From: Candidatus Aenigmatarchaeota archaeon
GTDB taxonomy: Archaea > Aenigmatarchaeota > Aenigmatarchaeia > GW2011-AR5
Reading direction: 5' to 3'
DNA: 29,129 nucleotides
Assembly: GCA_043799385.1 (NCBI GenBank)
Contig: JAZDNV010000017.1
Location: 1-29,129 of the forward strand
In this document: positions 749 through 24,343 of the stretch, piece after piece
Position numbering within the stretch: position 1 is the stretch's first letter
Layout of the letters: every line of letters starts with the position of its first letter
Made by a program: the position numbers and the translations under genes
The notes under the pieces: generated by a model
The model's database searches: none
Seen by the model: the letters and a program-made list of their open reading frames with translations, nothing else
What the model was told of the DNA's origin: nothing

Positions 749-1612
749 TTATGCTACTTCAGTGTTTTGCATAATTCTGGTGAGTTTTGCTTTGCATCCA
801 ATCTGATAGATGAAATTATACTCGTTTGAAAGCAGGCTTTCTGCAACAGCACTTTCTTCTGCCGTGATTTCAGCAAGGCAGAACCTCTTTGCCAGCATGT
901 AGTCAAAAACCTCGCATAGATCCTTCTGGTTCATATCCTGTATAGACGGCAGTATGTTGCACACTTTGCTGTTGAGCTCTTCCATTGGTATGCCGCTATT
1001 TGTGCTAAGGTCGCTTATGTTATTTGCGTGCATACAGTCCACGAAATAGTAAATCTGCATGTATGTTGATTCCCATTTTGTTTTTTCCACACCCATGATT
1101 TTGTTTGCCCATGATAATTCGCTCGTTCGGTCTAGCATCCCAAATCTGCACAATTTTGTAATAAAAGGTATATAGAATCCTTTCAAATCGTTCTCTGTTA
1201 GCGTGCTTGGTAAATTATTGTATGCAGACATGATTGCATCGGTTCTGTCTCTCATGATTTCAAAAGGCTCAAAACCTAGGTTTGCTTTCATCTGCATATA
1301 GACAAAAAGAAACGGTACCGCGCAATTTTTTTTAGAGTTGCAATCGTCAAATAACCGATCCAGATCGTTTGCTATCTGGTTTCTCTGTTCCTGCGTCAGG
1401 CTATTGAAATACCTTGGATTGTTGTATTCATTGAGGTTGCTCCATATTTCATTTATATTTAATGGTGTTGATGGCAGTTTTTGCAGATTATAGTAGTATA
1501 TCAAAGACAGTGCGACAATTATAAAAATTGCCAAAATCCAGCTGCTTTTTACTTTCTGTACTTTCGGCTGTACCTTTCGTCTCTTGTGAACGCTCCTGCT
1601 TTTTCTTTTCAT
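749..1612 (-). CDS. Membrane-anchored hypothetical protein with 8 conserved Cys (paralog A of 3422..4306)
   Basis: 287 aa with a basic N-terminus and one TM helix (WILAIFIIVALSLIYYY). Shares WAxKI, STYMQI, VCNILP and CKAxL motifs with 3422..4306. Confidence 0.75.
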   Translation of the reverse strand: MKRKSRSVHKRRKVQPKVQKVKSSWILAIFIIVALSLIYYYNLQKLPSTPLNINEIWSNLNEYNNPRYFNSLTQEQRNQIANDLDRLFDDCNSKKNCAVPFLFVYMQMKANLGFEPFEIMRDRTDAIMSAYNNLPSTLTENDLKGFYIPFITKLCRFGMLDRTSELSWANKIMGVEKTKWESTYMQIYYFVDCMHANNISDLSTNSGIPMEELNSKVCNILPSIQDMNQKDLCEVFDYMLAKRFCLAEITAEESAVAESLLSNEYNFIYQIGCKAKLTRIMQNTEVA

Positions 1613-1816
1613 ATAAACTCTATGATATTTTTAAGCTCCTGCCCTGTTATTAACTTGTTTTCCCTGATATTTAAGTTTTGTTAAGTCGTTGATATCTGCC
1701 TTTATGATGCACAGATAGATGGAAGAATCGTATTGCCGATTATACATGCGGCTTATTTGCTATTCATATCAGCAATATTTAAGATAAATTATAATTATTA
1801 TTATCAGGGTTGGACA

Positions 1817-2941
1817 ATGGATAGCAATGAAAAAAAAAGTCATCGAATAGAGACACTTTATCCACATCATTGTGTCTGGGAAATCACCCGTGCCTGCAAT
1901 ATGAGGTGTATACATTGCGGTTCAAGCGCAGGTCCGTTGACAAAAAGGCCGGACGAATTGAATACACAGGAAGCGTTGGATGTTATAAATCAGTTAAAGG
2001 AAATCGGAACAATAAAAGTCACCCTTTCCGGCGGAGAGCCTTTTCTAAGAGCAGACTGGGAAACTTTAGCAAAAGAAGTTGTCCGATTAAACATGTTCGT
2101 TTCGTTTATTAGCAATGGATTTTTGCTGAATGAGGATATAGCTGGGAGAATAAAAAGATTGAATGAAAACACTAATCTTGTACGTGTGGTATGCTTAAGT
2201 ATCGATGGTGATGAAAAAACCCACGATTATATAAGACAGACCAAGGGCTCTTTTGATAAGGTAACTCAAGCCATGGAAACGCTTAGAGATAGTGGTTTGA
2301 ATACTTCAGTGATAACACAGGTGAATAAGCTTAATCTTAAATTGCTGCCAAAGATAAGAGACAATATATTTAAATATAATAATATTGTTACTTGGCAGGT
2401 TCAAGTAGCTACTCCGTTCGGAAGGTTGGCTGAGGACCCAACGCTTTTGCTTAACCCTGGTGATTATCTCGAATTAGTAAATTTCATTGCAGAACAAAAA
2501 AGCATATTTGGAAGTAGAATCAGGATTGCTCATACCACAGGTTCATATACAGAGTCAGAGCCAATGTTAATTGGATGGGATGGTTGTTGGGCAGGATTAA
2601 AAGCTGTAGGAATTACCAGCAATGGCGGCGTGACCGGATGCCTGTCTTTGCAGGAGCCAAGGTTCATTGAAGGAAATGTGCGCACAAGAAGATTGGCGGA
2701 AATCTGGTATGATCCAAATTTTGCGTCATATAACCGTAATTTCAGAGAAGAGCTTCTGGAAGGTTATTGCAAGGAATGCGACCACCGCATAAAATGTCGT
2801 GGCGGTTGCAAAAATACAGCATATTCATTCTCCGGTTCACTTCATAATAATTTCTATTGTGCCCATAGAATCAGCCTTGGAGAAGTTCCCAAAGAAATAA
2901 AGTCAACCAGAACATCCGGGTGTGGTCAATACCATCCTTAG
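1817..2941 (+). CDS. Radical SAM/SPASM domain protein, putative peptide maturase
   Basis: CNMRCIHC (CxxxCxxC) in WEITRACNMRCIHCGSSAG, and SGGEP. Full SPASM Cys set: CWAG...GC-LSL...GNV...IW...CKEC...CRGGC...NNFYC. ATG 1817 (MDSNEKK) is preferred over the TTG at 1733 in the track. Confidence 0.9.
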   Translation: MDSNEKKSHRIETLYPHHCVWEITRACNMRCIHCGSSAGPLTKRPDELNTQEALDVINQLKEIGTIKVTLSGGEPFLRADWETLAKEVVRLNMFVSFISNGFLLNEDIAGRIKRLNENTNLVRVVCLSIDGDEKTHDYIRQTKGSFDKVTQAMETLRDSGLNTSVITQVNKLNLKLLPKIRDNIFKYNNIVTWQVQVATPFGRLAEDPTLLLNPGDYLELVNFIAEQKSIFGSRIRIAHTTGSYTESEPMLIGWDGCWAGLKAVGITSNGGVTGCLSLQEPRFIEGNVRTRRLAEIWYDPNFASYNRNFREELLEGYCKECDHRIKCRGGCKNTAYSFSGSLHNNFYCAHRISLGEVPKEIKSTRTSGCGQYHP

Positions 2942-3012: not shown

Positions 3013-3390
3013 CTAGGCATAGGCGCCACCCGTAGTGCATCCACCATATGCCACACATCCCGCTGTAGTACATCCCGTCGTGCACGCAGTCGTACATGCC
3101 GTCGTGCACGCAGTCGTACAACCGCACGAAGTCGTACAACCGCAACCACCACAACCCGCAGTCGTACAACTCGTCGTACAGCTAGCGCTGCCGTGTGAGC
3201 TTGTATGCTGTCCTGTTATTGTACTCGGTTCTGTAAATCCTACAGTGGTGCCTGATATATGAGTTGCTGCCGCTGCTCCTACACCGACCAGTAATGCGCC
3301 TAGCGACAGTGCAGCCTGCTTGGAGACCTTTCCCTCCTCACCCAGCAAGAATGCGCATATCGTGGCCTTGATCTTTGGAAGTATTGACAT
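3013..3390 (-). CDS. Putative RiPP precursor: His-Xaa-Ser repeat (HxsA-like) protein with a Cys/Thr-rich repeat tail
   Basis: 125 aa. Leader ...FLLGEEGKVSKQ followed by a hydrophobic stretch. Motifs HIS (44-46), HTS (62-64) and HGS (66-68), then 13 Cys and nine CTT triplets. Co-oriented downstream of hxsB, with its own TATA-like box. Confidence 0.8.
   Translation of the reverse strand: MSILPKIKATICAFLLGEEGKVSKQAALSLGALLVGVGAAAATHISGTTVGFTEPSTITGQHTSSHGSASCTTSCTTAGCGGCGCTTSCGCTTACTTACTTACTTGCTTAGCVAYGGCTTGGAYA
3061..3180. repeat. Imperfect 12-nt coding tandem repeat (CTTA/CTTS/CTTG units) inside the precursor
   Basis: gtcgtgcacgca-gtcgtacatgcc-gtcgtgcacgca-gtcgtaca at 3077-3120. Positions 3075-3096 and 3099-3120 are identical (24-nt period). 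More gtcgtaca copies occur up to 3180. Confidence 0.85.
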
Positions 3391-3421: not shown

Positions 3422-4306
3422 TTACAAAATACTTTTAAGCATAGCTTTGCACTCCTTCTGGTGGTTTGATTCGTAATCCTTAAGGAGTATGTTCTCTGCG
3501 GAAGCCCGCTCTTCTTCAGTGATATTGATTGAGCAGAACTGCTTTATTCGTAAGTAATTATGAATTTTACACGGGTCTTCTCGAATTATATTGTTGAAAG
3601 CTGGCAAGATATTGCATACCATATTGTTTAATTTATTCAGGCTCATGTTGAGCCTTTGGCTAAGATCTTTAGTTGTATCTGCTTTTATGCATTCGACCAT
3701 ATAGCTAATCTGCATATAAGTGGATATCCAATTTTTCTTGTCGATTAAAATGATTTTTTCTGCCCAATAAGTCTTATCCTGGTCACTAAACCAGTAAGTA
3801 GGGAATTTATCCGTTCCATTGAAAAAGTGTGTATTGCACATCTGTATTAATAGTGGCACAAGGTATCCATTCAAATCGTCCTCTCTTAATGTCGGATAAT
3901 CTTTTAATAAATTTAAGTATATTTCTACAATCTTGTGATTAAAAATTTCATTGTCTATAGAATTCATGTTTCCCCAGCCTATTGGTGCATTCTCAATTTC
4001 AACTATAACAAATCGTGTCCTTAGGTAAGTATATATAAAATGAACGTTGCAATTCTCGTTTAGTGCCCAATTCTTGCATCTTTCATATAGTAAATTATTG
4101 AAAGATTTGACGAGTTGAGCTCTTTGCGTATTCGATAGGTTTTCGAGATATAATTTATTGGCATATTGTGCAGAATTTTCCAGTATTTTGTTTGGGTCTA
4201 TAATTTCCTCATTCTTGGAAAATTGGTAATAATAGAGACCAATGCATAAAATAATAATTAAGAAAAAGACTGTTAACTCTACCTTTCTTTTCATGTCAGA
4301 CATCAT
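3422..4306 (-). CDS. Membrane-anchored hypothetical protein with 8 conserved Cys (paralog B of 749..1612)
   Basis: 294 aa with an N-terminal TM (LTVFFLIIILCIGLYYY). Colinear similarity to 749..1612 is visible by eye. Confidence 0.75.
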   Translation of the reverse strand: MMSDMKRKVELTVFFLIIILCIGLYYYQFSKNEEIIDPNKILENSAQYANKLYLENLSNTQRAQLVKSFNNLLYERCKNWALNENCNVHFIYTYLRTRFVIVEIENAPIGWGNMNSIDNEIFNHKIVEIYLNLLKDYPTLREDDLNGYLVPLLIQMCNTHFFNGTDKFPTYWFSDQDKTYWAEKIILIDKKNWISTYMQISYMVECIKADTTKDLSQRLNMSLNKLNNMVCNILPAFNNIIREDPCKIHNYLRIKQFCSINITEEERASAENILLKDYESNHQKECKAMLKSIL

Positions 4307-4371: not shown

Positions 4372-5820
4372 TCATCGTTCTGGTCTTACCCATTTTGTAA
4401 TTATCTCACGGTCCTTTGACAGCAGTCGCCTGAAAACCTCCTTGGTTTGTTCGCCTCTGATTTTGCAGACGAAATTCGGGAATCGTGGCACAAGCGTGCC
4501 CGTTTCTCCATAAGCTGACACAAGGCATGGCGAGCAGAATGCGTGCCAGACGCAGCTCTCGCAAGACGATGATAAACAGGACGACAGTGAGATGAACGAG
4601 GAGACGTTCTCTGAAGTGAATACTTCTTTATAGCTATTGCTCTTTACATTGCCTAGTCTGAACGTCTCGTTCGACCGCGCTTCGTCACACGTATAAATAT
4701 CACCGCGTTCGTTGTAGGCGCACTGGATCGTTCCGACGCCGCAAGGCGAGTTGAGGCAGGCGTTGAATGTAGATTTCTTACACAGAATCCTTGACAATAT
4801 GAAGGACGTCGTTTCATCCCAAAACTTGGTGACCATACTATTTAGGTCTATTACGTATTGCAGGTAATCTTTCCAGAATTTTATGAACTCTTCTGGCGTA
4901 TAGCCAATTTTATCCCAGGCGTTGATGGCCATACCAGCTATATTAAGTTCCCTCATCCTCGTATGGTCGAACCCGCGTTTTATGTATTCGTCGACGATCT
5001 CTTTTGCATATGGCAGCGAATGTTTTGTGATCGTGGGTATAGCACTGATTTGGATACCCCTTCTCTTTATTATCTCGATCCATTTTACAGCATCATCGTA
5101 GCTGCTGTTGCCGTTTCTGCACGGACGGTTCCTGTCATGCAGTTCCTTGGGCCCGTCGAGTGACGTGCATACCCTTATCTTATTTTCAGTAATATAATTC
5201 AGGATATCCTCATCCATCAGTGTCAGATTTGTCACAATCATGAAAGAAATATTTCTGTCTCCGGTATACCATCCACGCTCATCCGGTTTCGGTGATTTAT
5301 TCTTCTCTTTCGTATAATCTACGATATACTTAACGATTGGAAAATTCAGCAGCGGCTCGCCGCCCTGGAATTCGATATTCAGGAATTTCGATGGCGACTG
5401 GAAGATAAAGTCGACGACTGCCTTTGCAGTAGTTTCGTCCATGTCGTACTCCTTTGAATTAATATCCTTGGATAACGCATGGCAATAAATGCAGTTCTGG
5501 TTACATCTTAATGTGGGCACGATTATATGCAGATTTATGCCATTGAATAGGTAATTGAATCTCTGTTTGCACGTATCGACCATATCATTTGTATTCTTTT
5601 CTGTTATGATTATTCCCCTTTCTTCTAGAACATCGAAAAGATGCGGGTCTTCATTTATTTTATTTCTTATAAGAAGATCATACTCATTCTTTGAGAGAAC
5701 TATCCATGAACCATGGTCAGTCGTTACAAGAATATGCTCGTCGTCGAACTTATGCGTAAGAAACTTATTGGCCGTATATGGTACATTATTGATGATATTC
5801 TCATTCAGGTAGTAAACCAT
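4372..5820 (-). CDS. hxsB: His-Xaa-Ser system radical SAM maturase HxsB
   Basis: LHIIVPTLRCNQNCIYCHA, IEFQGGEPLLNF, TSLDGP..LHDRNR, SPCGVGTIQCAYNERGDIYTCDEAR and CESCVWHAFCSPC match HxsB-type motifs. Has an N-terminal RRE-like region and lies next to HxsD-like genes and an HxS peptide. Confidence 0.88.
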   Translation of the reverse strand: MVYYLNENIINNVPYTANKFLTHKFDDEHILVTTDHGSWIVLSKNEYDLLIRNKINEDPHLFDVLEERGIIITEKNTNDMVDTCKQRFNYLFNGINLHIIVPTLRCNQNCIYCHALSKDINSKEYDMDETTAKAVVDFIFQSPSKFLNIEFQGGEPLLNFPIVKYIVDYTKEKNKSPKPDERGWYTGDRNISFMIVTNLTLMDEDILNYITENKIRVCTSLDGPKELHDRNRPCRNGNSSYDDAVKWIEIIKRRGIQISAIPTITKHSLPYAKEIVDEYIKRGFDHTRMRELNIAGMAINAWDKIGYTPEEFIKFWKDYLQYVIDLNSMVTKFWDETTSFILSRILCKKSTFNACLNSPCGVGTIQCAYNERGDIYTCDEARSNETFRLGNVKSNSYKEVFTSENVSSFISLSSCLSSSCESCVWHAFCSPCLVSAYGETGTLVPRFPNFVCKIRGEQTKEVFRRLLSKDREIITKWVRPER

Positions 5821-5828
5821 TCGATCAC

Positions 5829-6110
5829 TTATCTAAAACCTTTTACTATCTCCGGGACTTTTCCATCGTTTTTTATTATGCCCAGAACATAATTGTAGAA
5901 TTCGTGACCAAGTATATACAAATCTATTTCCTCCGTTTTTGGTTTAAGTAACACTTGCATGATATCCTGCCCATCGACCGATGTAAAGCATACATCAGAA
6001 AAATCCTGTGAAGCTTTGAATACGCAATCGGATGGGTAAAACCTTGTATCGAAGATTACAGTAACACTCCCATCCTCTTTGTTTATGGTTATTTTGTCAT
6101 TCATTTGCAT
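5829..6110 (-). CDS. HxsD-like small protein (second copy)
   Basis: 93 aa. FDTRFYPSDCVFKASQDF...VLLKPK...LGHEFYNYVL parallels the neighbouring HxsD (VNPRLYPLEVIYSSAYIF...VQLRPK...LGREFNNELL). Confidence 0.7.
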   Translation of the reverse strand: MQMNDKITINKEDGSVTVIFDTRFYPSDCVFKASQDFSDVCFTSVDGQDIMQVLLKPKTEEIDLYILGHEFYNYVLGIIKNDGKVPEIVKGFR

Positions 6111-6541
6111 TCGTCCTTATTTTTCCACGGCTTTGCGATCTTTTCCGGATCTTCTGTATATGATGCTTCATTTCTGGGGTGGTGAATAAATCGATGCTCT
6201 TGCTTGCCGTCCTGCTCGTTCGTGAGCAGTGCTCTGCGCATTATAGTTTCGCGCAAGCCCTGATTTTTCACAGTCCTATGCAGGTAAACCATGTAATTGA
6301 GTAATTCGTTGTTGAATTCACGACCCAATTCTTCGATATCTGAATCGTTCTTTGGTCTTAGCTGAACCAGAATCTCCTCTTTAGGGTCGCCGTCTATCAT
6401 GACGAATGCACGGTCAATAAAAATATATGCAGAGGAATATATCACCTCCAACGGATATAATCTTGGATTCACGGAAACATTTACGAACTTATCTTTTCTA
6501 TGCAGTTCAAGATTGTCTATCATCTGAATATCTTCTTCCAT
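6101..6541 (-). CDS. hxsD: His-Xaa-Ser system protein HxsD
   Basis: NPRLYPLEVIYSSAYIFIDRAFV...EELGREFNNELLNY...LRETIMRRAL is an HxsD-like pattern. ATG 6541 follows an SD-like GGGGTG and avoids overlap with the divergent gene (the track starts at 6595). Confidence 0.8.
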   Translation of the reverse strand: MEEDIQMIDNLELHRKDKFVNVSVNPRLYPLEVIYSSAYIFIDRAFVMIDGDPKEEILVQLRPKNDSDIEELGREFNNELLNYMVYLHRTVKNQGLRETIMRRALLTNEQDGKQEHRFIHHPRNEASYTEDPEKIAKPWKNKDECK

Positions 6542-6585
6542 TAGAACACCCCATAGTATTAATATACTAGAGTTTAAATTATTTT

Positions 6586-7641
6586 GTGTTTGCAATACTT
6601 TTTGCTCTCGTTGTATTCGGTATATGGACTTCTTATACCGATATAAAGAAAGGCATGATTAGGAACAATGTCATTCTGCTCCTATTACTGGCAGCGTTTA
6701 TTCTGAACACATTCTATACGAGAAGTTTTGTTGTTGCTACTGCGGCATCGGCTGTAAACATAACGGTTGCCATAGTTGGAGGATTTTTGCTATGGTTTGC
6801 TGGTATGTGGTCAGCGGCAGACGCAAAATTGTTCATTGGCTTCGCCTTTCTTCTGCCTATAACCCTATATGAGCACAGTTTTTCATACTTTCCAGCTGTG
6901 GCGATTTTGATAAACAGCTTTGTGCCGATATTCTTGATACTTTTTATTAACTTGGTTTTAAAAACAAACTCAAAGGATATAAAGAAAGCCGTACGTGAAC
7001 AGTTAAATATAAAGAGTGTTCTTCGTTTGGCTCTGGCTGTTTTTGCAATATCATTTATACCCATGGTCATGCGCTATGTCTTTAATATACAGTTTGAATA
7101 CTTCACTTCGATACTCTTCCTTTTCATAATTTTTGAGGTTGTTGAAAAAACGATTAAGGTTAAAATGAATGTATTTTACATAATCATGTCAATCGCATAT
7201 GTCATATTTTTTAATAGTTATATATTTACATTGGATTTTATTTTCAATTTTATTAGATGGTTTCTAATGTTACTAGGAATATTCTTTTTGATTAATCTCA
7301 GCAGATTTTCATTCACTTCGTCGGTGAAGATAACCGAATTGAAAGAGGGTATGATACCTGCTGAAATCATTGTCAAAAGCAGCGAAAAATATGTTACAAG
7401 ACCAATGGCCTTTATTACCCCTTTCTCGATGCTTAGGCAGAGAAAGGAATCGATATTTGGATACAATCCTGACGGTCTGGTTGGCAAGGATATAAAAAAT
7501 ATTCAGTCATTGTATAGAGAGAAAAAGTTAGGTTTCGATGAGATTAGAGTATCCAATACAATGCCTTTTGCGCCGATATTATTCATAGGAGCGCTGATAA
7601 CCTATTTTTCTTCTGGAATCTTTCTTAATTTGTTCATATAA
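6586..7641 (+). CDS. A24 family prepilin/preflagellin peptidase (archaeal FlaK/EppA-like, multi-TM)
   Basis: First catalytic Asp in TSYTDIK. Second in AGMWSAADAKLF (a GxGD variant). C-terminal ITELKEGMI...MPFAPILFIG archaeal peptidase domain. Many TM segments. Confidence 0.85.
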   Translation: MFAILFALVVFGIWTSYTDIKKGMIRNNVILLLLLAAFILNTFYTRSFVVATAASAVNITVAIVGGFLLWFAGMWSAADAKLFIGFAFLLPITLYEHSFSYFPAVAILINSFVPIFLILFINLVLKTNSKDIKKAVREQLNIKSVLRLALAVFAISFIPMVMRYVFNIQFEYFTSILFLFIIFEVVEKTIKVKMNVFYIIMSIAYVIFFNSYIFTLDFIFNFIRWFLMLLGIFFLINLSRFSFTSSVKITELKEGMIPAEIIVKSSEKYVTRPMAFITPFSMLRQRKESIFGYNPDGLVGKDIKNIQSLYREKKLGFDEIRVSNTMPFAPILFIGALITYFSSGIFLNLFI

Positions 7642-7653: not shown

Positions 7654-7684
7654 CCGCGAATAACAATTACTTTTATTGATAGAT

Positions 7685-10012: not shown

Positions 10013-10052
10013 ATCGCCCACTGCTTCAGATTATCATCTTGCTAAAAACTAA

Positions 10053-10091
10053 TTTATATATAGGAGAACAATTATATTTAACGTGAGGTGA
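10053..10091 (+). promoter_or_regulatory. TATA box and Shine-Dalgarno upstream of eS26
   Basis: TTTATATA at 10053-10060 and GAGGTGA at 10085-10091, 6 nt before ATG 10098. Confidence 0.6.
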
Positions 10092-10097
10092 AATACT

Positions 10098-10367
10098 ATG
10101 CCTGCTCCATACAAACGAGGTTATCATCATACCAAGTCAAAGGGACACGAATCTACTGTTACATGCGGATTCTGCGGAAGGAGCGTTCCGAGATGGAAGA
10201 CAATCGCTTCATATCGCGGTTTTCGAATAAACGATCCGGTTCTAAACAAGCAAATGGACAGGAGGATGATGAGCATGTTCCAGAGAAAGCTCTACGCATG
10301 CCCGTCCTGTGCCAGACATCGTGGTATAATAAAGGTAGGAAGAAGCAGAAGGTTGGGGTCTGACTGA
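10098..10367 (+). CDS. rps26e: 30S ribosomal protein S26e (eS26)
   Basis: 89 aa, basic. KGHESTVTCGFCGRSVPRWK...DP...KLYACPSCARHRGIIKV matches the eS26 zinc-finger pattern CxxCGRxVPxxK / CxSCAxHxxI. Strong SD. Confidence 0.85.
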   Translation: MPAPYKRGYHHTKSKGHESTVTCGFCGRSVPRWKTIASYRGFRINDPVLNKQMDRRMMSMFQRKLYACPSCARHRGIIKVGRSRRLGSD

Positions 10368-12265
10368 TGGAAAAGACGCGCGCAAGGCAGATGCTCGAGA
10401 TACTGCGAGCCCAAGGAATTGATTCAGTATCAAGGACTGAAGTCAAGTTAGACATCAAAACGCCTGCTGCGCCAGTTTTTTTGCCAATCGCAGAAAAATT
10501 GCCTGCCGCTGAGGTAAAAGAACCGCTGATTGCGGATAGCGTAAAAAAAGAGGAGCCGGCGAAAAAAGAAGAAAAAACGCAAATAAAGCTGAAGGGATTC
10601 CTGTACAGAAAGTTGATAGGCGGCAGGAAGGATATTGGAAAAAATAACGCATCGCAGAAGACGGAATCAAAACAGCGTTTCCACATACGCGGTTTGCTGT
10701 ACGATAAATTACATGAACAGAAGTCGGAACAGAGCAAATATCCCAGGTTTGCTATAGAACCAAGCGGAATAATTCCAGTGCTCTCGAAGGACGAGCTAAA
10801 GGAAAAGACCACGAGCTATCCGCTGATAAAGCCTTATGCCTATGCGGACATAAGGTTTGACCAGAGCGAGAACTCGCTCGTTTATTTCGTCGTTGAGCCC
10901 GAGCTGAACGATTTTGAGAAGCATGTTATATCTAAACTAAAAGAGGGCTTGCTGCAGGTTATCGACATCTCTCTGAAGGACATAAAGAAGGAGGATAAGA
11001 TGATCGACTTCCTTGAGGGGAACATAAACAAACTTCTGGATGAATATGACTTCAGCCTGAATGAAAAGGAATACCTGAAGATAATGTATTTCATATATCG
11101 TGATTTCGTCGGATTGAATGATATCGAGCCGCTGCTTTGTGACCCGTATATAGAGGACATAGGGTGCGACGGTTTCAACGTTCCCTTATATGTTGTCCAT
11201 CAGCGGTACGGCTCATTGAAGACTAATATAATATATCCTGATGAAAACGAGCTGAAAGAATTCGTTACGAAGTTAGCAGAACGCTGCGACCGCTTCATAA
11301 GCTATGCAGAACCGATGCTGGACGGAGCATTACCGGATGGCACTCGTGTCCATGCCTCATTAGCTGGCGACGTGACAACACGAGGCCCTACGTTCTCGAT
11401 AAGAAAATTCAGGGATGAGCCTTTCACGCCTGCCGATATAATTCGTTTGAATACTGCGTCGCCCGAGTTACTCGCCTACATATGGTTCGTTGTCGAGAAC
11501 GGCGTCAACATACTGATAGTGGGCGGCGTTGCAACAGGCAAGACGTCGCTGCTGAACTGCATCTCAATGTTCATACCGTCTGAAGCGAAAATCGTATCAA
11601 TAGAGGATACGCGCGAATTATCATTACCGCATGAGAACTGGATACCAGGCGTTGCGCGCACCGGCTTTACCGGTACTGGCGTCGGCGAAGTAACGATGTT
11701 CGACCTGCTGAAGGAGTCGTTCAGGCAGAACCCTGACTATCTGGTCGTGGGCGAGATACGAGGCAAAGAAGCATACGTAATGTTCCAGTCCATGGCGTCA
11801 GGCCACCCGTCAATATCAACAATGCACTCCGGTAGTGTCGATGACGTCGTCAGCAGATTACGAACAGAGCCGATATCCCTGCCACCTGGATTAATACAGC
11901 TTTTGGATTTAGTCATCATTATGGTCCATGCGCGTGAGAAAGGAAAATCCGCCAGGCGTGTTAAAGAAATTGTTGAAATACAGAGCATTGATTCTGAAAC
12001 AGGTTTTGCAAGGACGAATAAGGTCTTTACCTGGACACCATCCCAGGACACGTTTGAATATCATGGCGATTCGTGGGTACTGCACAAGATATCAACTGAA
12101 AAGGGAATAACAATGAACGATATTGTTCGCGATATAGCCAAGCGAAAGAAGTTCATAAACTGGATGGTGGAGAAAAATATCACGAACATGAACGAAATCG
12201 CGAAATACATTGAAACATACAGGAGAAGCCCTGAAAAAATAAATTCTTTGATCGGATATGAATAG
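10367..12265 (+). CDS. Archaeal type II/IV secretion (type IV pilus) assembly ATPase, FlaI/TadA/VirB11 family
   Basis: YPLIKPYAYA...YFVVEPEL, GLNDIEPLLCDPYIEDI, FSIRKF, Walker A GGVATGKT, SIEDTREL, RQNPDYLVVGEIRG and GHPSISTMH. Confidence 0.93.
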   Translation: MEKTRARQMLEILRAQGIDSVSRTEVKLDIKTPAAPVFLPIAEKLPAAEVKEPLIADSVKKEEPAKKEEKTQIKLKGFLYRKLIGGRKDIGKNNASQKTESKQRFHIRGLLYDKLHEQKSEQSKYPRFAIEPSGIIPVLSKDELKEKTTSYPLIKPYAYADIRFDQSENSLVYFVVEPELNDFEKHVISKLKEGLLQVIDISLKDIKKEDKMIDFLEGNINKLLDEYDFSLNEKEYLKIMYFIYRDFVGLNDIEPLLCDPYIEDIGCDGFNVPLYVVHQRYGSLKTNIIYPDENELKEFVTKLAERCDRFISYAEPMLDGALPDGTRVHASLAGDVTTRGPTFSIRKFRDEPFTPADIIRLNTASPELLAYIWFVVENGVNILIVGGVATGKTSLLNCISMFIPSEAKIVSIEDTRELSLPHENWIPGVARTGFTGTGVGEVTMFDLLKESFRQNPDYLVVGEIRGKEAYVMFQSMASGHPSISTMHSGSVDDVVSRLRTEPISLPPGLIQLLDLVIIMVHAREKGKSARRVKEIVEIQSIDSETGFARTNKVFTWTPSQDTFEYHGDSWVLHKISTEKGITMNDIVRDIAKRKKFINWMVEKNITNMNEIAKYIETYRRSPEKINSLIGYE

Positions 12266-12938
12266 AATCAAAACAGGAATAACAGGTTTTGACAAGCTCG
12301 TGGAGGGTGGAATACCGGAAAAGGATTTGATTCTGCTCAGCGGTCGGTGCGGTGCAGGCAAAACGGTTTTTGGTCTTCAGTTTTTATTCTCATCACCAGA
12401 AAAAGAGCCAGGATTATTCATCAGCTTCGAAGAGGACCTTCAGCAGATAAAAAACACAGCAATGCAGCTCGGCTGGAATGCAGACGCTTACGAGAAGGCA
12501 GGAAAGATACGATTACTGCGCTACGATCCATTCAAATTAGAGGACATATTCGAAATAATTGAGAACAACATCCGCGAGATAAATGCGAAGCGCGTTGTCG
12601 TTGATTCAGTTTCATCGTTAGGCACATACGTCAAGGATAATTCAGAGCTGAGAAGGATGATAATGCAGATAAGCAACATGCTCAGAAAGAACGGATGCAC
12701 ATCCATTCTCACATGCGAGGTGCTTAATGATAATTCGCTCTCTCGGTTTGGCGTCGAGGAGTTCGTTGCGGATGGAGTGATACTCTTGCACAACGTTCTG
12801 ACTGCCGGCGAATACCGCCGCGGTTTGAGCGTCTGGAAGATGAGGGTAACCAACCACTCACGAAAAATCCACCCGTACAAAATCACTGAAAAAGGGTTTG
12901 TCGTCTATCCGAATGATACTATTTCTCTAAAAGGCTGA
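12258..12938 (+). CDS. KaiC-like single-domain RecA-superfamily ATPase
   Basis: RIKTGITGFDKLVEGGIP, Walker A GRCGAGKT, SFEE, RVVVDS, EEFVADGVI and KMRVTNH. Confidence 0.9.
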   Translation: MNRIKTGITGFDKLVEGGIPEKDLILLSGRCGAGKTVFGLQFLFSSPEKEPGLFISFEEDLQQIKNTAMQLGWNADAYEKAGKIRLLRYDPFKLEDIFEIIENNIREINAKRVVVDSVSSLGTYVKDNSELRRMIMQISNMLRKNGCTSILTCEVLNDNSLSRFGVEEFVADGVILLHNVLTAGEYRRGLSVWKMRVTNHSRKIHPYKITEKGFVVYPNDTISLKG

Positions 12939-12985
12939 TTTTAAAAATAATTTTAAATAGGAGACACAAGTATTATAAGGTCTAA

Positions 12986-13855
12986 ATGTACAGGAAGACG
13001 CTGAAGTATTTTGGAAAGCTGGGATTAAAATACCTGACGGGTTATGTTGCGCCACTCAAAGAAGAGATAACGAAATCGAATCTTAACATACTCTTTGAAT
13101 TCTACGTTGGAAAGATGCTATTCCTATCGTTTGTCGCATTCGTTGCGGTTTTCCTCGGAACTACAATAGTTTCTGTCTTGATACTGAATCTTGATATACT
13201 TCTGTCATTGATAGGAGCGCTCATCTTATCGGTTGCCGTGTCGTTTGCAGTGCTCACGATATATCATTCCTATCCGTTCCACACGCTTTCAACGAGAAGG
13301 AATGATATAGAGGGCGTGATGCCTTTTGCCATAAACCACATGTCAGCTATTGCCGCTAGTGGCGTTCCGCCGTACGTTGTATTCAAACTGCTTACCGGCA
13401 TAAAGGAATATGGCGAATTCATGCACGAGTCGCAGCGTATTGTCCGAAACATAGACGCGTTCGGCATGGATTTGATATCTGCGATAAAAAACGTGGCTGA
13501 AAGAACGCCATCCGAGCAGTTTCGCCAGTTTTTATATGGAATCGTATCGAATATAGAAACAGGCGGCGACTTGAAGAAGTTTTTTGACAATGCGGCAAAA
13601 GAAGCATTATTTGATTATCGCTTGAGAAGGGAAAAATATCTGCAAGCATTATCGACTTATGCAGACTTCTATACAGCTGTGCTCATCGCCGCGCCGTTAT
13701 TCTTCATCGCTGTTCTTGCAGTGATGGGAATGATTGGCGGTACGGTCATGGGGTTACCAATCGACCTGGCGATGACGATGGGCATCTACGGCTTGATGCC
13801 TATTCTAAACATGGCGTTCATAGCGTTCATACACTACACGCAGCCGAATATATAA
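12986..13855 (+). CDS. Type II secretion system F / TadC-like pilus platform membrane protein
   Basis: MPFAINHMSAIAASGVPP...YGEF...FGMDLISAIKNVAERTPSEQF...TGGDL. TM pattern typical of archaeal TadC. Confidence 0.9.
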   Translation: MYRKTLKYFGKLGLKYLTGYVAPLKEEITKSNLNILFEFYVGKMLFLSFVAFVAVFLGTTIVSVLILNLDILLSLIGALILSVAVSFAVLTIYHSYPFHTLSTRRNDIEGVMPFAINHMSAIAASGVPPYVVFKLLTGIKEYGEFMHESQRIVRNIDAFGMDLISAIKNVAERTPSEQFRQFLYGIVSNIETGGDLKKFFDNAAKEALFDYRLRREKYLQALSTYADFYTAVLIAAPLFFIAVLAVMGMIGGTVMGLPIDLAMTMGIYGLMPILNMAFIAFIHYTQPNI

Positions 13856-13867
13856 ACGTGATGAAAG

Positions 13868-14701
13868 ATGAAAAAAAAGAAATTCAAGTTCGGGCTGAAG
13901 ACAATAAATTTCATTACGCTGCCGGTTGGCGCGGCAATCCTGCTGATAAATTATCTCTACTTCATCAAAAACTCTCAGGTCTCGATGCTTCTTGACCTGT
14001 TGGCAGCTGTGATAATCCTGGGTGTCCCGCTTATATACCGTTACATGCTCATAAGCAGGATGAGGAAAATGGAAGCGCTTTTTCCGGTTTTTCTTCGTGA
14101 CATTACAGAAAACATAAACGCTGGCATGACGTTGCCGCAGGCGATTCGCGCCGCATCGGCCAACAACTATGATATCCTTTCGCCGCACATCAAAGAGATA
14201 AACGCAAGGATATCGTGGGGTATACCATTCGAGAAAGTGCTCAATGATTTTGCAAGCACAGTAGGCAGCGATAACCTTAAGAGAACAGTCCATGCAATCG
14301 TTGAGGCGCACAGGAGTGGCGGAACAATGAACACGATTCTTGAATCAGTCGGCGAGTCATTAAAGGAATTAGAGAAGATAAAGAAAGAGCGGACGGCATC
14401 CGTGTATGCTCAGATGATAAACGGTTACCTTATCTACTTTGTATTCCTGGGCGTGATGGTAGGAATGAACGTGTTCCTGCTGCCGACGTTCGAGTGGGGC
14501 GGGCTCGAGGGCCAGCCGAGCAGCGAACTTGGGAAAGTCCTTCCAGATTTATTCCGCCACCTCGTTCTCATACAGGGCGTTTTTGCAGGATTGGCAATCG
14601 GCAAGATGGCAGAAGGAACGATATTCGCAGGCGTCAAACATTCATTAGTCTTGGCAGTCGTAGGCTTCTCGGTCTTCATTCTGTTCTCGCCAGCAGCATA
14701 A
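13868..14701 (+). CDS. Type II secretion system F / TadC-like membrane protein (second copy)
   Basis: FPVFLRDITENINAGMTLPQAI...YDILS...ISWGIPFEKVL...EAHRSGG...GLAIGKMAEG...GVKHS. Confidence 0.9.
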   Translation: MKKKKFKFGLKTINFITLPVGAAILLINYLYFIKNSQVSMLLDLLAAVIILGVPLIYRYMLISRMRKMEALFPVFLRDITENINAGMTLPQAIRAASANNYDILSPHIKEINARISWGIPFEKVLNDFASTVGSDNLKRTVHAIVEAHRSGGTMNTILESVGESLKELEKIKKERTASVYAQMINGYLIYFVFLGVMVGMNVFLLPTFEWGGLEGQPSSELGKVLPDLFRHLVLIQGVFAGLAIGKMAEGTIFAGVKHSLVLAVVGFSVFILFSPAA

Positions 14702-14760
14702 ACACGGCGGAATTAAATTTATATATACCAGAGGAGAAATAAATAAAGTAAGGGAAAGAA

Positions 14761-15147
14761 ATGAAGAATAAACCAAAAAGGAAAATCAGCGTCAGGAACA
14801 ACTCATCATACATAATCATCATTGCAATAATGATAGTCGTCATTGCAGTAGTCTCGATATTCTCCTACAAGCAACCAGCGCCAGTGGATACAACGTTGCC
14901 AGAGCTGAAAGCAATCGCTGAGCAGAGTCCGCTGGTCAATGATTATGCAGGCGTGCAACCAACGTATCGCAAGCTTTCTGCGCAAGACGTGCAATCATCA
15001 ATAGCCGCAGGATTATTCTCCGCGGACGCGAGCAATGAAATCTATTTCCTCAACTACATCAAGGACAATCAAGGCATTTCTTTAATAATTGACAAAGCGA
15101 GCGGAACGATACTTAAGACGCAGGTCGTCGTCGGCATCGGCCAATAG
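14761..15147 (+). CDS. Small membrane-anchored hypothetical protein
   Basis: 128 aa with a basic N-terminus and one TM helix. Upstream TTTATATA at 14718-14725. C-terminal IIDKASGTIL is weakly PepSY-like. Confidence 0.65.
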   Translation: MKNKPKRKISVRNNSSYIIIIAIMIVVIAVVSIFSYKQPAPVDTTLPELKAIAEQSPLVNDYAGVQPTYRKLSAQDVQSSIAAGLFSADASNEIYFLNYIKDNQGISLIIDKASGTILKTQVVVGIGQ

Positions 15148-15153
15148 GGTGAA

Positions 15154-21060: not shown

Positions 21061-22128
21061 TCATCTACTTTTCAGCAACGCCAAAAAAATAGAAATCTTA
21101 TCTTTTAAATCATAATCATAATTGCAATTCAATATGGCACAGCCACTTTTGCAATTCTTAATCAAGCGCCTTTGTCTTATTCCCTTCTCCGAGAACCACA
21201 CGTCTCTGGGATTTTGCTTTTTCATGTTGCCTATTATATCATATCTGGGGCAGTAGAGGACACGCCCATTCGCGAGTATCTTGAAGTTTTTCCATATGCT
21301 GCAGTTGATGCTTGTCGTCCTCGGGTTTCTGAAATATTCTTTCATCAACAATAGATGTTTAGTGGAATTCTGTATCGGATAACGCTTCTTCATCGATATT
21401 ATCTCATCTATCAATTCAGACATTTCGTTGCAATCATCCGGCCAGAATTTATTTTTTTCATACCAGAGTTCATCTTCGTTTATTCTCCCGAAATTTGGCG
21501 ACAGCTGCTGGAACAGAATTCCAAAATAATTACTCTTGGCCCATTTAATCAAATCCACGATTTCGCAGGAATTGTAGCCCATAAGAACAGTTGCTATCTT
21601 TATCTTCTTGTTATGGCTGATTTCGGAAATCTGCTCTATGTTGGACATTATTTTATTGTAAGTGCCCTTCTTCCCTCTGAGGTAGTCATGTGTTTTAGGA
21701 GTAATCCCGTCCAGCGAGATTGTCAGCATATCGAGATTAGTGTTCAATATTTCAAAATCATCCCTGTCAAGAAGCGTTCCGTTGGTTATGAGATTGGTTA
21801 TCCCTGTGCCAGATGCGCAGTTTATCAGTTCGAATATGTCTTTTCTTAGCATTGGCTCGCCGCCGCTCAAAGTAATAAATGACGTTCCAAGCCATTTTTT
21901 AAAATAAAGGATGAGGCCCTTTAATTCTTCTGCAGACAGTTCGGTATGATCAATATTTTTGAGTATTTTTTTTAATTTCCAGATGTCACAATTCCTGCAC
22001 CTCAAGTTGCAGTCATACGTCAGGTCGATCAGTATTCTCGAAGGTTTGTACATTCTCGGATAAAGTCGTCCTGAGTATTCGTTAAAAGTCTCGTTCATTG
22101 CAAATCTCTGGAGTTTCAACCTGTTCAT
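21061..22128 (-). CDS. Radical SAM protein with C-terminal SPASM/twitch-like domain
   Basis: LTYDCNLRCRNCDIW, SGGEP, TNGTL, SLDG...HDYLRG, C...NG.V..C...GN...W...CKSGC..LNC. Confidence 0.9.
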   Translation of the reverse strand: MNRLKLQRFAMNETFNEYSGRLYPRMYKPSRILIDLTYDCNLRCRNCDIWKLKKILKNIDHTELSAEELKGLILYFKKWLGTSFITLSGGEPMLRKDIFELINCASGTGITNLITNGTLLDRDDFEILNTNLDMLTISLDGITPKTHDYLRGKKGTYNKIMSNIEQISEISHNKKIKIATVLMGYNSCEIVDLIKWAKSNYFGILFQQLSPNFGRINEDELWYEKNKFWPDDCNEMSELIDEIISMKKRYPIQNSTKHLLLMKEYFRNPRTTSINCSIWKNFKILANGRVLYCPRYDIIGNMKKQNPRDVWFSEKGIRQRRLIKNCKSGCAILNCNYDYDLKDKISIFLALLKSR

Positions 22129-22132
22129 AATC

Positions 22133-23311
22133 TTACCTGAACGAATTCACCAAACGAGCAATCTTCATTACCTCTTCATCCTTCAGAAACGGGTTCATAG
22201 GAAGGCAGAGAACTTCGTTGGCGGTTTTTTCTGATTCAGGAAAATCGTCTCTCTTATGGCCAAGATACCTGAAAGTCTTTGTTAGGTGTATTGGCGTGTC
22301 GTAATCTGCTCGGGTCTCAACACCGTTTATTAACAAGAATCGCTGAAGCTTGTTGCGTTTGCTTGAACGAATAGCATAACTGAACCAGCTGTGCTTAACA
22401 TATTTACCTTCTATCGGTGTTATTATTCCTGTTCCTGAAAACTCTTTGTTGTAGATTTTTGCAATTTCTCTTTTGCGTTCAACCCATTCTTTAATGAAGG
22501 GAAGCTTGGCTTTTATAAATGCTATCTGAACTGCATCTAATTCGCACGGCGTTCTTTTGCTGAGAAGCAGGAACGCTTCATCTGCTGTTGGATTCTTCAG
22601 AATCTCGAGTTTTCTTTTGAGATTTTTGTCGTTTGTTACTATCGCTCCGCCGTTGCCCAGGCCGCCTAGCAGCTTGGATGTGTGAAAACTAAAGCAGCCA
22701 CCACCAATTGGAATTTTTTTGTTCTTATATCCCACTTCCTGCGCCTGGCAGCAATCTTCTATTACCTGCAGGCGATGCTTTTTAGCAATATTCATTATCT
22801 CATCCATGTTGCACGGCTGGCCGTACAGATGGACCGGCATGATCGCTTTCGTATTCTCTGTTATAGCTTCTTCTATCTCCGACGTGTCTATATTATAATC
22901 ATTGTCTATGTCAACGAAGACAGGCTTTGCATCTGCGTTGGCTATTGCCAACGGTGTTGCTATGTAAGTGTAAGGAGTGGTTATTACTTCGTCACATTTT
23001 CCGATGCCTGCAGCAATTAGCGATAGTTGCAACGCTGCTGTTCCGGAATTCGCGGTGATAGCGAACTTCTTTTTGCAATGACGCGCATAAAGCCTTTCGA
23101 AATCTCGTTCATAGAACCAGAATTCGTAATCGCTGCGAAATTCCCATATTTTTTCCAGCTCTTTTTCAAAGTTTTCCTTTATTTCAGCGTTTTGTCGGTC
23201 ATAACTGCTGAATGAAATCATTTTTTTTCTGTTGTATTTTGTATAGGCAGTTCTTGCCCAGTCTAATAGAAATGGATGCTCATGGTATACATTTTTCGCT
23301 AGTTTCAACAT
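22133..23311 (-). CDS. DegT/DnrJ/EryC1/StrS family PLP-dependent aminotransferase
   Basis: NSGTAAL, EVITTPYTYIAT, PVFVD, KAIMPVHLYGQ, IEDCCQA, SFHTSKLLG.GNGG (PLP Lys) and LCLPM.P. Confidence 0.9.
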   Translation of the reverse strand: MLKLAKNVYHEHPFLLDWARTAYTKYNRKKMISFSSYDRQNAEIKENFEKELEKIWEFRSDYEFWFYERDFERLYARHCKKKFAITANSGTAALQLSLIAAGIGKCDEVITTPYTYIATPLAIANADAKPVFVDIDNDYNIDTSEIEEAITENTKAIMPVHLYGQPCNMDEIMNIAKKHRLQVIEDCCQAQEVGYKNKKIPIGGGCFSFHTSKLLGGLGNGGAIVTNDKNLKRKLEILKNPTADEAFLLLSKRTPCELDAVQIAFIKAKLPFIKEWVERKREIAKIYNKEFSGTGIITPIEGKYVKHSWFSYAIRSSKRNKLQRFLLINGVETRADYDTPIHLTKTFRYLGHKRDDFPESEKTANEVLCLPMNPFLKDEEVMKIARLVNSFR

Positions 23312-23324
23312 ATTTTTGATGATT

Positions 23325-24308
23325 TCACCTATTCCTCCTTTTCAGCAGCAAAGTTTTTATTGCATTGAAATTCAGAGAATAGAGCAGATCGCGGTCGGCG
23401 AAGAAAGAGATGCAGCTACATTGGTGCGGTTTGATTTTGTTGAAAGCGTTCACAAAGCCAATCTTCAACCCGTCGTACGATTCCTTGCTGAAAAAGCACG
23501 GTGATACGTAGCCATTTGGAAGAAGATTGCAATAAAGTATTCCGGCATAGCTTTTTTTCGCCTTCCTGCCGTCAAATCGCCTTATCCATTCATTGTATAC
23601 CGCATTGTCCCTGCCTATCTGCTTGAATTTTTCTTTGGATTTTTTTATCAGTTCAATGGCTTTGATATTTTTTTCAGCCGACATGGGATCGTTGCTTTTA
23701 CCATATTTATGGCTGTAGACTGGATGGAATATTATTCTTACACCAAGTTCATTGGACAGACCGAACAGATACCTGAGCCCAAAAAAATCATTTTTAGTGT
23801 TTTCTTCGCATATGGTCGACTGTATTGTTATGTCAAAACCTCTACTCTTTGCCGATTTAATCGATTCTATAACTTTTTCATAAGTTCCCCTTCCCTTTGT
23901 TTTTTCATGGATTTCCTTTGACCCGTTTAGTGACATGAATATTCTGTCAATGTTTTTCAATTCATTGTACATTTTTTCGAAAAGGACGCCATTCGTTGTA
24001 AGCATAACAAACAATCCACAATCCTTTGCGTAATTTATCAGTTCACCAATATCTTTTCTCAGCAGCGGCTCGCCTCCTGTGAAGTTCCATACCTTCGTTC
24101 CTGCGTTGCTGAATTCATCAATTGCTTTTTTTATCTGGTTTGTGCTCATTTCTTTTATGCGGTTCTTCGGCAGACCGCAGTACTTGCATCTTAGGTTGCA
24201 TGAGAAGTTGATTTCATGGAACACTTCCAGCGGCGTTCTTTTGCCATACCTTGATAATAGAACTGGTAAAAAAGACTGTAGTATGACCATATCTTTATAG
24301 TAAATCAT
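23325..24308 (-). CDS. Radical SAM protein with a twitch-like C-terminus
   Basis: INFSCNLRCKYC, TGGEPLLRKD, TTNG, LPNGYVSPC...CSC. The true start may be ATG 24290. Confidence 0.88.
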   Translation of the reverse strand: MIYYKDMVILQSFLPVLLSRYGKRTPLEVFHEINFSCNLRCKYCGLPKNRIKEMSTNQIKKAIDEFSNAGTKVWNFTGGEPLLRKDIGELINYAKDCGLFVMLTTNGVLFEKMYNELKNIDRIFMSLNGSKEIHEKTKGRGTYEKVIESIKSAKSRGFDITIQSTICEENTKNDFFGLRYLFGLSNELGVRIIFHPVYSHKYGKSNDPMSAEKNIKAIELIKKSKEKFKQIGRDNAVYNEWIRRFDGRKAKKSYAGILYCNLLPNGYVSPCFFSKESYDGLKIGFVNAFNKIKPHQCSCISFFADRDLLYSLNFNAIKTLLLKRRNR

Positions 24309-24343
24309 CTAAATTTTAAATCCTTGGGATTCATATCTAAACT

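Follow-up and report, generated by a model that had tools for sequence, protein, structure and literature searches.

The closest described relative of the locus reported here is the bacterial HXS antiphage system, in which HxsA, HxsB, HxsC and HxsD block the entry of phage DNA (Li et al., Nat Commun 2026, PMC13128918). In the portion of that paper covered here, the N-terminal processing of HxsA is called non-canonical, no protease is identified for it, the survey takes in bacteria only, the words peptidase, prepilin and archaea are absent, and the published E. coli HxsA begins with a plain signal peptide. The present work concerns an archaeal counterpart, carried by a 29,129-base contig of an Aenigmatarchaeota archaeon (C19; the whole contig is the window analysed throughout) from a genome of 786 kb, 43% G+C and 91% completeness. 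The central finding is that a short Hxs precursor peptide encoded at 3013..3390 has a conserved 20-residue leader, and that an accessory A24-family peptidase encoded at 6586..7641 belongs to the same cassette and probably trims the precursor after Gly20.

A24 prepilin peptidases are known to trim pilins, archaellins and a few surface proteins that bear a pilin signal, and the leader of Flp pilins ends in DExG and is followed by G|XXXXEY. As set out in the covered part of PMC4471445, the class III signals of such substrates comprise a hydrophilic leader of 6-26 residues with a conserved Gly at its end, about 21 predominantly hydrophobic residues directly past the Gly that form the filament assembly interface, and a Glu at +5 that is often absent in archaea. 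A literature search that covered the His-Xaa-Ser literature in part found no publication linking a prepilin peptidase to Hxs or to the leaders of modified peptides.

Results

An archaeal Hxs locus without HxsC

The window carries genes of archaeal types, and its Hxs locus is an archaeal, HxsC-less variant of the known Hxs radical-SAM system, of the HxsA3 type and with a Cys-Thr-Thr-x core. As in bacterial HXS, there is an HxsB above the family cut-off, small HxsD-like proteins that score just under theirs, and a substrate with His-x-Ser units that is here predicted to be exported and N-terminally processed. Unlike bacterial HXS, the locus lacks HxsC, has HxsD in duplicate and includes a dedicated A24 peptidase; its substrate, a short peptide, has 20 extra residues ahead of the signal-like region and a Cys-Thr-Thr-x core. 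The best match to the HxsC model (TIGR03977, cut-off 267.9) scores 103.8 bits in the 91%-complete genome and 58.4 bits in the window, at 1733..2941. Both bacterial Hxs loci inspected carry hxsC, neither has an A24 peptidase annotated within 5 kb, and one bacterial HxsA2 precursor that we translated (MKAKFLVPVSTLAAAMAAQHSSA...) has a plain short signal, without the 20-residue extension, at the place equivalent to the region past the Gly. The features on which the argument turns are as follows.

3013..3390, minus strand: 125-residue precursor of HxsA3 type, composed of leader, hydrophobic helix, conserved His-rich linker and Cys-Thr-Thr-x repeat core (translation; partial HxsA3 match)
3331..3390, minus strand: basic, amphipathic leader, residues 1-20 (MSILPKIKATICAFLLGEEG), with the invariant Gly20 at its end (alignments); putative A24 cut between Gly20 and Lys21
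3265..3330, minus strand: residues 21-42, made up of Lys-Val-Ser-Lys-Gln, the uncharged helix AALSLGALLVGVGAAAA and an AxA-like site before Thr43
3187..3207, minus strand: His-x-Ser triplets HTS and HGS, residues 62-68, just upstream of the core
3016..3180, minus strand: core, residues 71-125, of Cys-Thr-Thr-(Ser/Ala/Gly) repeats (translation)
4372..5820, minus strand: HxsB radical SAM/SPASM maturase (TIGR03978, 403.2 bits, cut-off 370)
5829..6110, minus strand: small HxsD-like protein of 93 residues (NF038315, 37.4 bits, cut-off 41)
6101..6595, minus strand: HxsD-family protein, listed with a TTG start (TIGR03976, 42.7 bits, cut-off 50)
6586..7641, plus strand: accessory A24-family (GxGD-type) aspartyl peptidase of 351 residues with an archaeal A24 C-terminal domain; proposed leader peptidase

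The peptidase gene is divergent from, and adjoins, the hxsD-hxsD'-hxsB-precursor genes. As listed, the 5' ends of the HxsD open reading frame (ORF; TTG at 6595) and of the peptidase ORF (GTG at 6586) overlap at 6586..6595. Because the HxsD family match begins at residue 45, the true HxsD start is probably a later internal Met, and such a start would leave a very short divergent promoter region.

The leader is the best-conserved part of the precursor

The ORF at 3013..3390 translates as MSILPKIKATICAFLLGEEGKVSKQAALSLGALLVGVGAAAA... (125 residues), and its beginning is identical to the leader quoted in a first-pass annotation of this DNA. The span 3262..3390 corresponds to residues 1-43, with the Gly20 codon at 3331..3333 and the Lys21 codon at 3328..3330. 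Beyond residue 43 lie the linker THISGTTVGFTEPSTITGQ, the HTS and HGS triplets and about a dozen Cys-Thr-Thr-(Ser/Ala/Gly) units. Residues 4-47 match the HxsA3 model NF038309 (E = 1.4e-4; 21.6 bits, and 23.2 bits in a second search), a match that does not reach the cut-off of 65 and is confined to the leader and helix region; the run of HxS repeats expected of HxsA3 is not present in the C-terminal part, which has two triplets only.

The precursor matches no Pfam family at E <= 0.01, and a word-indexed protein search with residues 1-62 returned no homologue. Relatives were reached instead through the genomic context of HxsB: flanks of at most 8 kb were taken around 34 other HxsB loci from the same phylum, and the ORFs in them were searched with the window proteins. 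A homologous leader ORF is present in 18 of the 34. With the window leader these give an alignment of 19, in which Gly20 never varies and K8, F14 and K24 are conserved at 90% or more; the HxsA3 model matches all 19 (best E 5.6e-13). When loci found via the peptidase were added (114 loci and 62 hits, reducing to 51 non-redundant leaders), the pattern [FY]xxxExG, Gly included, was found in 51 of 51, so that the EEG whose conservation the first-pass annotation had proposed to check is kept across homologues as E-x-G.

A stricter regular expression fits 47 of the 51, and the other four also have the Gly. Among the 47, columns that the expression did not force show Glu two before the Gly (the equivalent of Glu18) in 44, Lys or Arg at +1 in 36 and Gly at +11 in 44. 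Lys stands at +4 in 46, in a column that the expression limited to K/E/R/Q, and Ile or Val at +2 and Ser or Thr at +3 are near-universal in columns that it partly forced. The family consensus reads (L/I)PKIKKxxxxFLx(G/D/S)E(E)G, then K-I-S-K-x-x, a Gly/Ala-rich uncharged helix, AxA-like small residues and a conserved His-rich stretch. The 20 residues before the helix are the best-conserved part of the peptide, and the leader is a conserved element, not a chance pattern.

The cores are more varied. Most relatives have HxS repeats of the HGSHSSH type instead of Cys-Thr-Thr-x, and Cys-rich cores occur in a few (L063, L081, L101 and L107). A relative from the same family, G169 (L061), has hxsD-hxsD'-hxsB and no precursor on its 3.9-kb contig. 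In two further relatives the same leader heads a long protein, of 435 residues in L064 (5859-7166, minus strand) and of 545 residues in L043 (4104-5741, plus strand). After the linker, the L064 protein continues with a sequence that resembles the start of a Hint/intein-type domain, and the L043 protein with a long Thr-Ser-Thr repeat.

The leader resembles one half of a class III signal

The first-pass annotation had likened the precursor leader to an Flp/class III prepilin signal. The likeness stands for the front half of the signal, a 20-residue hydrophilic leader ending in an invariant Gly, and fails for the rear half, where conserved Lys residues follow the Gly, no hydrophobic tract comes immediately after it and no pilin model applies. 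The seven residues before the Gly read F-[LIV]-x-[GDSE]-E-x-G, and some relatives have FLKDEEG or FISDESG, as Flp/Tad pilins might; unlike those pilins, the leaders here have neither xxxxEY nor an immediate hydrophobic helix past the Gly, and no Flp Pfam model recognises them. The wider comparison, with class III signals and their A24 peptidases (PilD, TadV, PibD, FlaK and EppA), gives the same mixture. A Gly-ended leader, a single helix and a GxGD-type peptidase gene nearby are shared, whereas here Lys-x-Ser-Lys follows the Gly, the helix comes 5-10 residues later, Glu5 is absent, no pilin model matches and association with a filament machine is not conserved. Position +5 is Gln25 in the window precursor, and Glu occupies it in 6 of the 47 leaders. 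Genome searches with PF07790 (Pilin_N) and PF04021 (Class_IIIsignal) gave no match on this contig. The first-pass annotation was also right to call Lys at +1 and +4 atypical of class III signals, and both residues are conserved in the family. Taken as a unit, the Lys-rich stretch, the uncharged helix and the small residues resemble a Sec-like signal with its n, h and c regions, or else a membrane anchor.

The peptidase is an accessory member of the A24 family

The product of 6586..7641 matches the archaeal A24 C-terminal domain (PF06819) with 31.1 bits against a cut-off of 23.4, and Peptidase_A24 (PF01478) at the borderline, with 24.5 bits in hmmscan and 27.1 bits in a six-frame genome search against a cut-off of 26.5. 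Among 25 members of its clade, 23 match Pfam A24 at E <= 0.01 and 21 the archaeal C-terminal domain (Arc_PepC). All 25 align over their full length with D19, I25, N27, D79, K81 and F328 invariant; the second Asp motif is W-[STP]-[AGP]-[GA]-D-[AG]-K-L-F, within which the window protein reads S-A-A-D. As both catalytic Asp residues are invariant (25 of 25), the enzyme is under selection as a protease.

A sequence search of the Protein Data Bank with the peptidase profile returned no A24 entry, only chance Sec61-gamma rows with E of at least 0.054, and Foldseek against the same database gave no match at E <= 0.001, with FlaK at rank 41 (E 4.9). An AlphaFold2 model of the peptidase (pLDDT 83, pTM 0.79) was then compared by full structural alignment, in which FlaK (3s0x_B) is the top row, with Z 12.8 and a root-mean-square deviation of 4.0 over 169 aligned residues of 186, and the next row has Z 5.9. 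The window peptidase is a FlaK-fold, GxGD-type aspartyl protease with both catalytic Asp kept. The prepilin-type peptidase that had been assigned to this position from the sequence is thereby upheld by its archaeal A24 C-terminal domain, by the invariant D19 and D79 and by its fold.

Contig C30 of the same genome carries another A24 gene, which encodes 262 residues with a G-G-A-D motif. Its homologues occur in 341 of the 371 phylum genomes; of the 98 rated high-quality, 97 have one. With a housekeeping enzyme of the C30 type in 341 of the 371, the window enzyme is an extra copy. Methanococcus reportedly offers a parallel in EppA, a second, substrate-specific A24 peptidase: there too, an additional paralogue is said to stand beside the housekeeping one and to serve a subset of substrates with a different residue past the cleavage site. 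EppA substrates are reportedly true pilins, however, and the candidate substrate here is a radical-SAM-modified peptide.

The peptidase follows the Hxs genes

HxsB was found in 43 of the 371 phylum genomes at E <= 1e-30, in 27 of them above the curated cut-off. The window-type peptidase (E <= 1e-16) occurs in 33 of the 371, which span at least 13 taxonomic families, and an HxsB match is present in 33 of 33; none of the 371 has the peptidase clade without HxsB. Seven weaker peptidase matches outside the 33 (E 3.5e-9 to 4.4e-6, frames of 159-301 residues) look like the housekeeping type, and in the one case compared, G092, the weak match is at the same place as the housekeeping A24 match. Ten genomes have an HxsB-like match and no clade peptidase. 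Nine of these matches are weak (105-185 bits against the cut-off of 370) and were set aside as presumed other radical SAM/SPASM enzymes; the tenth, in G042, is a true HxsB on a 4.4-kb contig of a genome that is 83% complete.

The association extends to gene neighbourhoods. Of the 34 HxsB loci, 24 include the peptidase in the fetched stretch; among the ten that do not, several are short contigs (2-4 kb). A reverse scan with the peptidase profile against one genome per prokaryotic species found 263 relatives, of which the best 80 were kept; the record titles of these 80 are Aenigmatarchaeota, Woesearchaeota, Nanoarchaeota, Micrarchaeota, Iainarchaeum, Undinarchaeota, Altiarchaeales and a few bacterial-named bins. 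Of the 80 loci, 55 have HxsB (at least 100 bits); in 52 of these it is no more than 3 kb from the peptidase, and in 46 the two genes share a strand. Homologues of the HxsD-family protein (6101..6595; at least 40 bits) are likewise present in 55 of the 80, and some Hxs part (HxsB, HxsD or leader ORF) in 62. Homologues of the small HxsD-like protein (5829..6110) stand beside HxsB in most related loci, and the usual order, on one strand, is peptidase-hxsD-hxsD'-hxsB-precursor. A FlaI homologue, in comparison, was found in 3 of the 80 peptidase loci and in 1 of the 34 HxsB loci.

The first-pass annotation had asked whether the peptidase clade segregates with hxsB or with pilus operons, and it tracks hxsB (33 of 33 genomes and 55 of 80 loci against FlaI in 3 of 80). 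These data support the assignment of the peptidase to the Hxs cassette and not to a pilus operon. Membership of the plus-strand pilus operon that follows it in the window was rejected in view of its co-occurrence with HxsB and the rarity of FlaI at its loci.

Five of the bacterial-titled records (L073, L074, L090, L107 and L146, from Saccharibacteria, Desulfobacteraceae, Cytophagia and Falkowbacteria bins) have the same peptidase clade beside HxsB and HxsD. They are either mis-binned archaeal contigs or cases of inter-domain transfer.

A predicted complex places the leader at the catalytic region

The peptidase and leader residues 1-50 were modelled as a complex, each with its own separate alignment. 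The complex scored 0.66 (runs of 0.66, 0.67 and 0.63), and the best of three controls scored 0.01; the mark applied to this score is reached by 116 of 157 solved complexes and by 2 of 215 mismatched pairs, a rough guide only, with own alignments used here. Contacts agree to at least 83%, and the pLDDT of the partner is at least 67. On the peptidase the confident interface takes in, with further positions, residues 19, 23-27, 73-81 and 323-329; on the leader it covers residues 10 and 13-39. In the model Phe14 contacts peptidase residue 77 and leader residues 22-24 contact residues 323-328, which would seat the Gly20-Lys21 bond between contacts that flank Asp79. The prediction supports binding of the leader to the peptidase in the expected register. 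Together with the co-occurrence and the adjacency, it lends indirect support, short of proof, to the pairing of peptidase and precursor and to a cut after Gly20.

Filament genes near the peptidase

The first-pass annotation had noted a pilus ATPase/TadC set close to the peptidase and no canonical pilin in the window, and had suggested from these that a type IV pilus might display the modified peptide or serve as the route for its display. Both observations hold: the set begins at 10367, 2.7 kb past the peptidase, and neither the Pilin_N search nor a generic site scan revealed a pilin in the window. The Pfam Pilin_N search of the genome gave seven weak matches, none on this contig, and the generic scan of the window for [KR][GA] followed by a hydrophobic stretch, run with a positive control, gave four sites, all inside or antisense to known membrane-protein genes.

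The suggestion drawn from them is not supported. It was based on the window neighbourhood alone; FlaI is found in 1 of the 34 HxsB and 3 of the 80 peptidase loci, and the genome has its pilins and FlaI/FlaJ genes elsewhere. A FlaI-type neighbourhood recurs only in L068/L145, L108 and L144. Seven canonical pilins, all starting M(NA)KG|[IV][STN]P[LV][ILV]A, are encoded on other contigs; C11 carries another FlaI/FlaJ set, the second of the genome, and C25 a third FlaI-like gene. With seven pilins elsewhere in the genome, the missing pilin beside the operon leaves no gap for the peptide to fill. On present evidence the filament genes at 10367..14701 are a lineage-specific neighbour and stand outside the system.

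Discussion

We propose the following as the most likely account of how the archaeal Hxs precursor is processed. The data establish that the leader is conserved, to which family and fold the peptidase belongs, that its catalytic residues are kept, and that it co-occurs with and adjoins the Hxs genes. That the precursor is its substrate, where exactly it cuts, in what order the steps run and what becomes of the product are our inferences. HxsB and the HxsD proteins, in the cytoplasm, would first recognise and modify the precursor while it still bears its N-terminal cap. [quoted passage not shown] The remainder, which begins with the Lys-rich stretch and the helix, could anchor the modified core outside the cell; alternatively, it could constitute an unmasked Sec-type signal that signal peptidase I would cut at Ala42|Thr43. 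The Sec signal ending at AAAA, which had been put forward as a competing interpretation of the helix, may in that case be a second processing step and not a rival. Removal of the cap after Gly20 is the simplest reading, given that nothing else in the peptide is as well conserved as the cap and that a dedicated A24 enzyme goes with the peptide. As the conserved, Gly-ended cap precedes a Sec-like signal, cleavage may also act as a checkpoint, through which the peptide would leave the cytoplasm only after modification.

Several observations weigh against this proposal. The cleavage itself is a step that we infer, and the complex model is a prediction from our own alignments. The precursor lacks the rear half of the class III signal: K21-V-S-K24-Q follows the Gly, with the charged K21 and K24 conserved, and in most relatives the uncharged segment, of median length 18, begins 5-10 residues past the Gly. 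A Pfam search with the 19 leaders, run as loosely as E <= 10, gave no pilin or Flp family for any of them. The AxA-like site after the helix would alone suffice for ordinary export. In the window the peptidase lies on the strand opposite to the hxs genes and is co-directional with the pilus operon. The related genomes that show the co-occurrence are not independent samples. Finally, 18 of the 80 peptidase loci have no Hxs part in the fetched stretch. Five of the 18 extend some 8 kb to either side, so the peptidase is strongly, though not absolutely, tied to the Hxs genes.

The entire N terminus could be an ordinary Sec signal with an unusually long n-region, cut by signal peptidase I at AAAA|T, with the A24 enzyme doing something else, such as clearing intramembrane remnants in the manner of signal peptide peptidases, or acting on another substrate. 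The Lys-rich stretch, the uncharged segment with its median of 18 residues and the small residues do resemble n, h and c regions, and the one bacterial HxsA2 that we translated has a plain signal peptide at the equivalent place, like the published E. coli HxsA (PMC13128918, portion covered). We regard this explanation as unlikely, though worth keeping in view, for it accounts neither for the invariant Gly and the 20 best-conserved residues that it ends, nor for a dedicated A24 enzyme in 33 of 33 genomes, nor for the placement of residues 13-24 at the Asp19/Asp79 region in the model. Conservation of the leader might instead reflect recognition by HxsB and HxsD and nothing more, the A24 enzyme travelling with the cassette for another reason and leaving the leader uncut. 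Binding by the maturase is the general reason why radical-SAM-modified peptides keep their leaders conserved, and the constant presence of two HxsD-type proteins likewise speaks for recognition. Set against these are the invariance of both catalytic Asp residues, the lack of any conserved secreted or membrane protein in the cassette other than the precursor, and a complex model that passes its controls, and we consider recognition by itself an improbable explanation.

The least probable alternative is that the peptidase serves the adjacent filament operon, the cleaved, modified peptide being a pilin-like subunit that is displayed on the filament or exported via it. In the window the peptidase does head a plus-strand operon with FlaI-like, KaiC-like and FlaJ-like genes, there is no canonical pilin in the window and a similar neighbourhood is found in L068/L145, L108 and L144. 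Such a role is nevertheless very doubtful: FlaI is near the peptidase at 1 of the 34 and 3 of the 80 loci, HxsB at 55 of the 80, and seven MKG|[IV][STN]P pilins and the second FlaI/FlaJ set are found elsewhere in the genome; conserved Lys at +1 and +4 is moreover unfit for the hydrophobic helix of a filament core (PMC4471445, portion covered). That the peptide, once modified and trimmed by the A24 enzyme, is in this lineage passed to the neighbouring FlaI/FlaJ-type machine and polymerised or displayed as a filament or surface layer of chemically cross-linked Cys/Thr-rich peptide is similarly far-fetched on the present data; were it so, a pilus-like structure would be built from a modified peptide and not from pilin.

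If trimming by the A24 enzyme after Gly20 is correct, a dedicated A24 paralogue that accompanies a radical-SAM peptide cassette would add a new, non-pilin class of substrate to the A24 family, and a leader protease could be named for a widespread archaeal variant of Hxs. The archaeal variant would offer a concrete processing step where, in the covered portion of PMC13128918, bacterial HXS has no protease identified. Ultra-small symbiotic archaea may, by extension, carry a surface defence related to bacterial HXS. Through this variant the A24 peptidases would acquire a probable substrate that is not a pilin; in the window, the variant also has the unusual Cys-Thr-Thr core and extra genes.

Other genes of the window

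The genes that surround the cassette are the following.

1733..2941, plus strand: second radical SAM/SPASM enzyme, convergent with the precursor and not HxsC (best NCBIfam match TIGR04103, 237.5 bits, cut-off 725)
3422..4306, minus strand: membrane-anchored protein of 294 residues between hxsB and the precursor, a paralogue of 749..1612; its membership of the cassette is uncertain
10367..14701, plus strand: type IV filament genes for a FlaI-like ATPase, a KaiC/FlaH-like ATPase and a two-piece FlaJ/TadC-like platform (family matches)

The paralogues at 749..1612 and 3422..4306, both on the minus strand and about 290 residues long, each begin with a basic stretch and a hydrophobic segment, and they flank the precursor together with the second radical SAM/SPASM enzyme. 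They match each other with 119 bits, the sole match for 3422..4306 among the ORFs of 35 Hxs loci; neither belongs to a Pfam or NCBIfam family, and neither has a homologue in the 34 other Hxs loci. A role for the second radical SAM enzyme as a modifier of the Cys/Thr core is speculative, and this enzyme and the two paralogues may adapt the cassette to such a core.

On the plus strand, the peptidase is followed by genes for a 778-residue secreted protein, the FlaI-like ATPase, the KaiC/FlaH-like ATPase and the FlaJ/TadC-like protein in two ORFs. The filament-like operon as a whole runs from 7676 to 16746. Its FlaI-like ATPase scores 394 bits, under the archaellum cut-off of 550, and besides the machine it encodes two large secreted proteins, one Cys-rich (778 residues) and one Gly-rich (530 residues), and no pilin gene.

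A further cluster occupies 21061..26146. Two candidate radical SAM ORFs, at 21061..22128 and at 23325..24308, both have a CxxxCxxC motif; they flank an ORF of 392 residues (22133..23311) and are followed by an ORF of 600 residues at 24344..26146.

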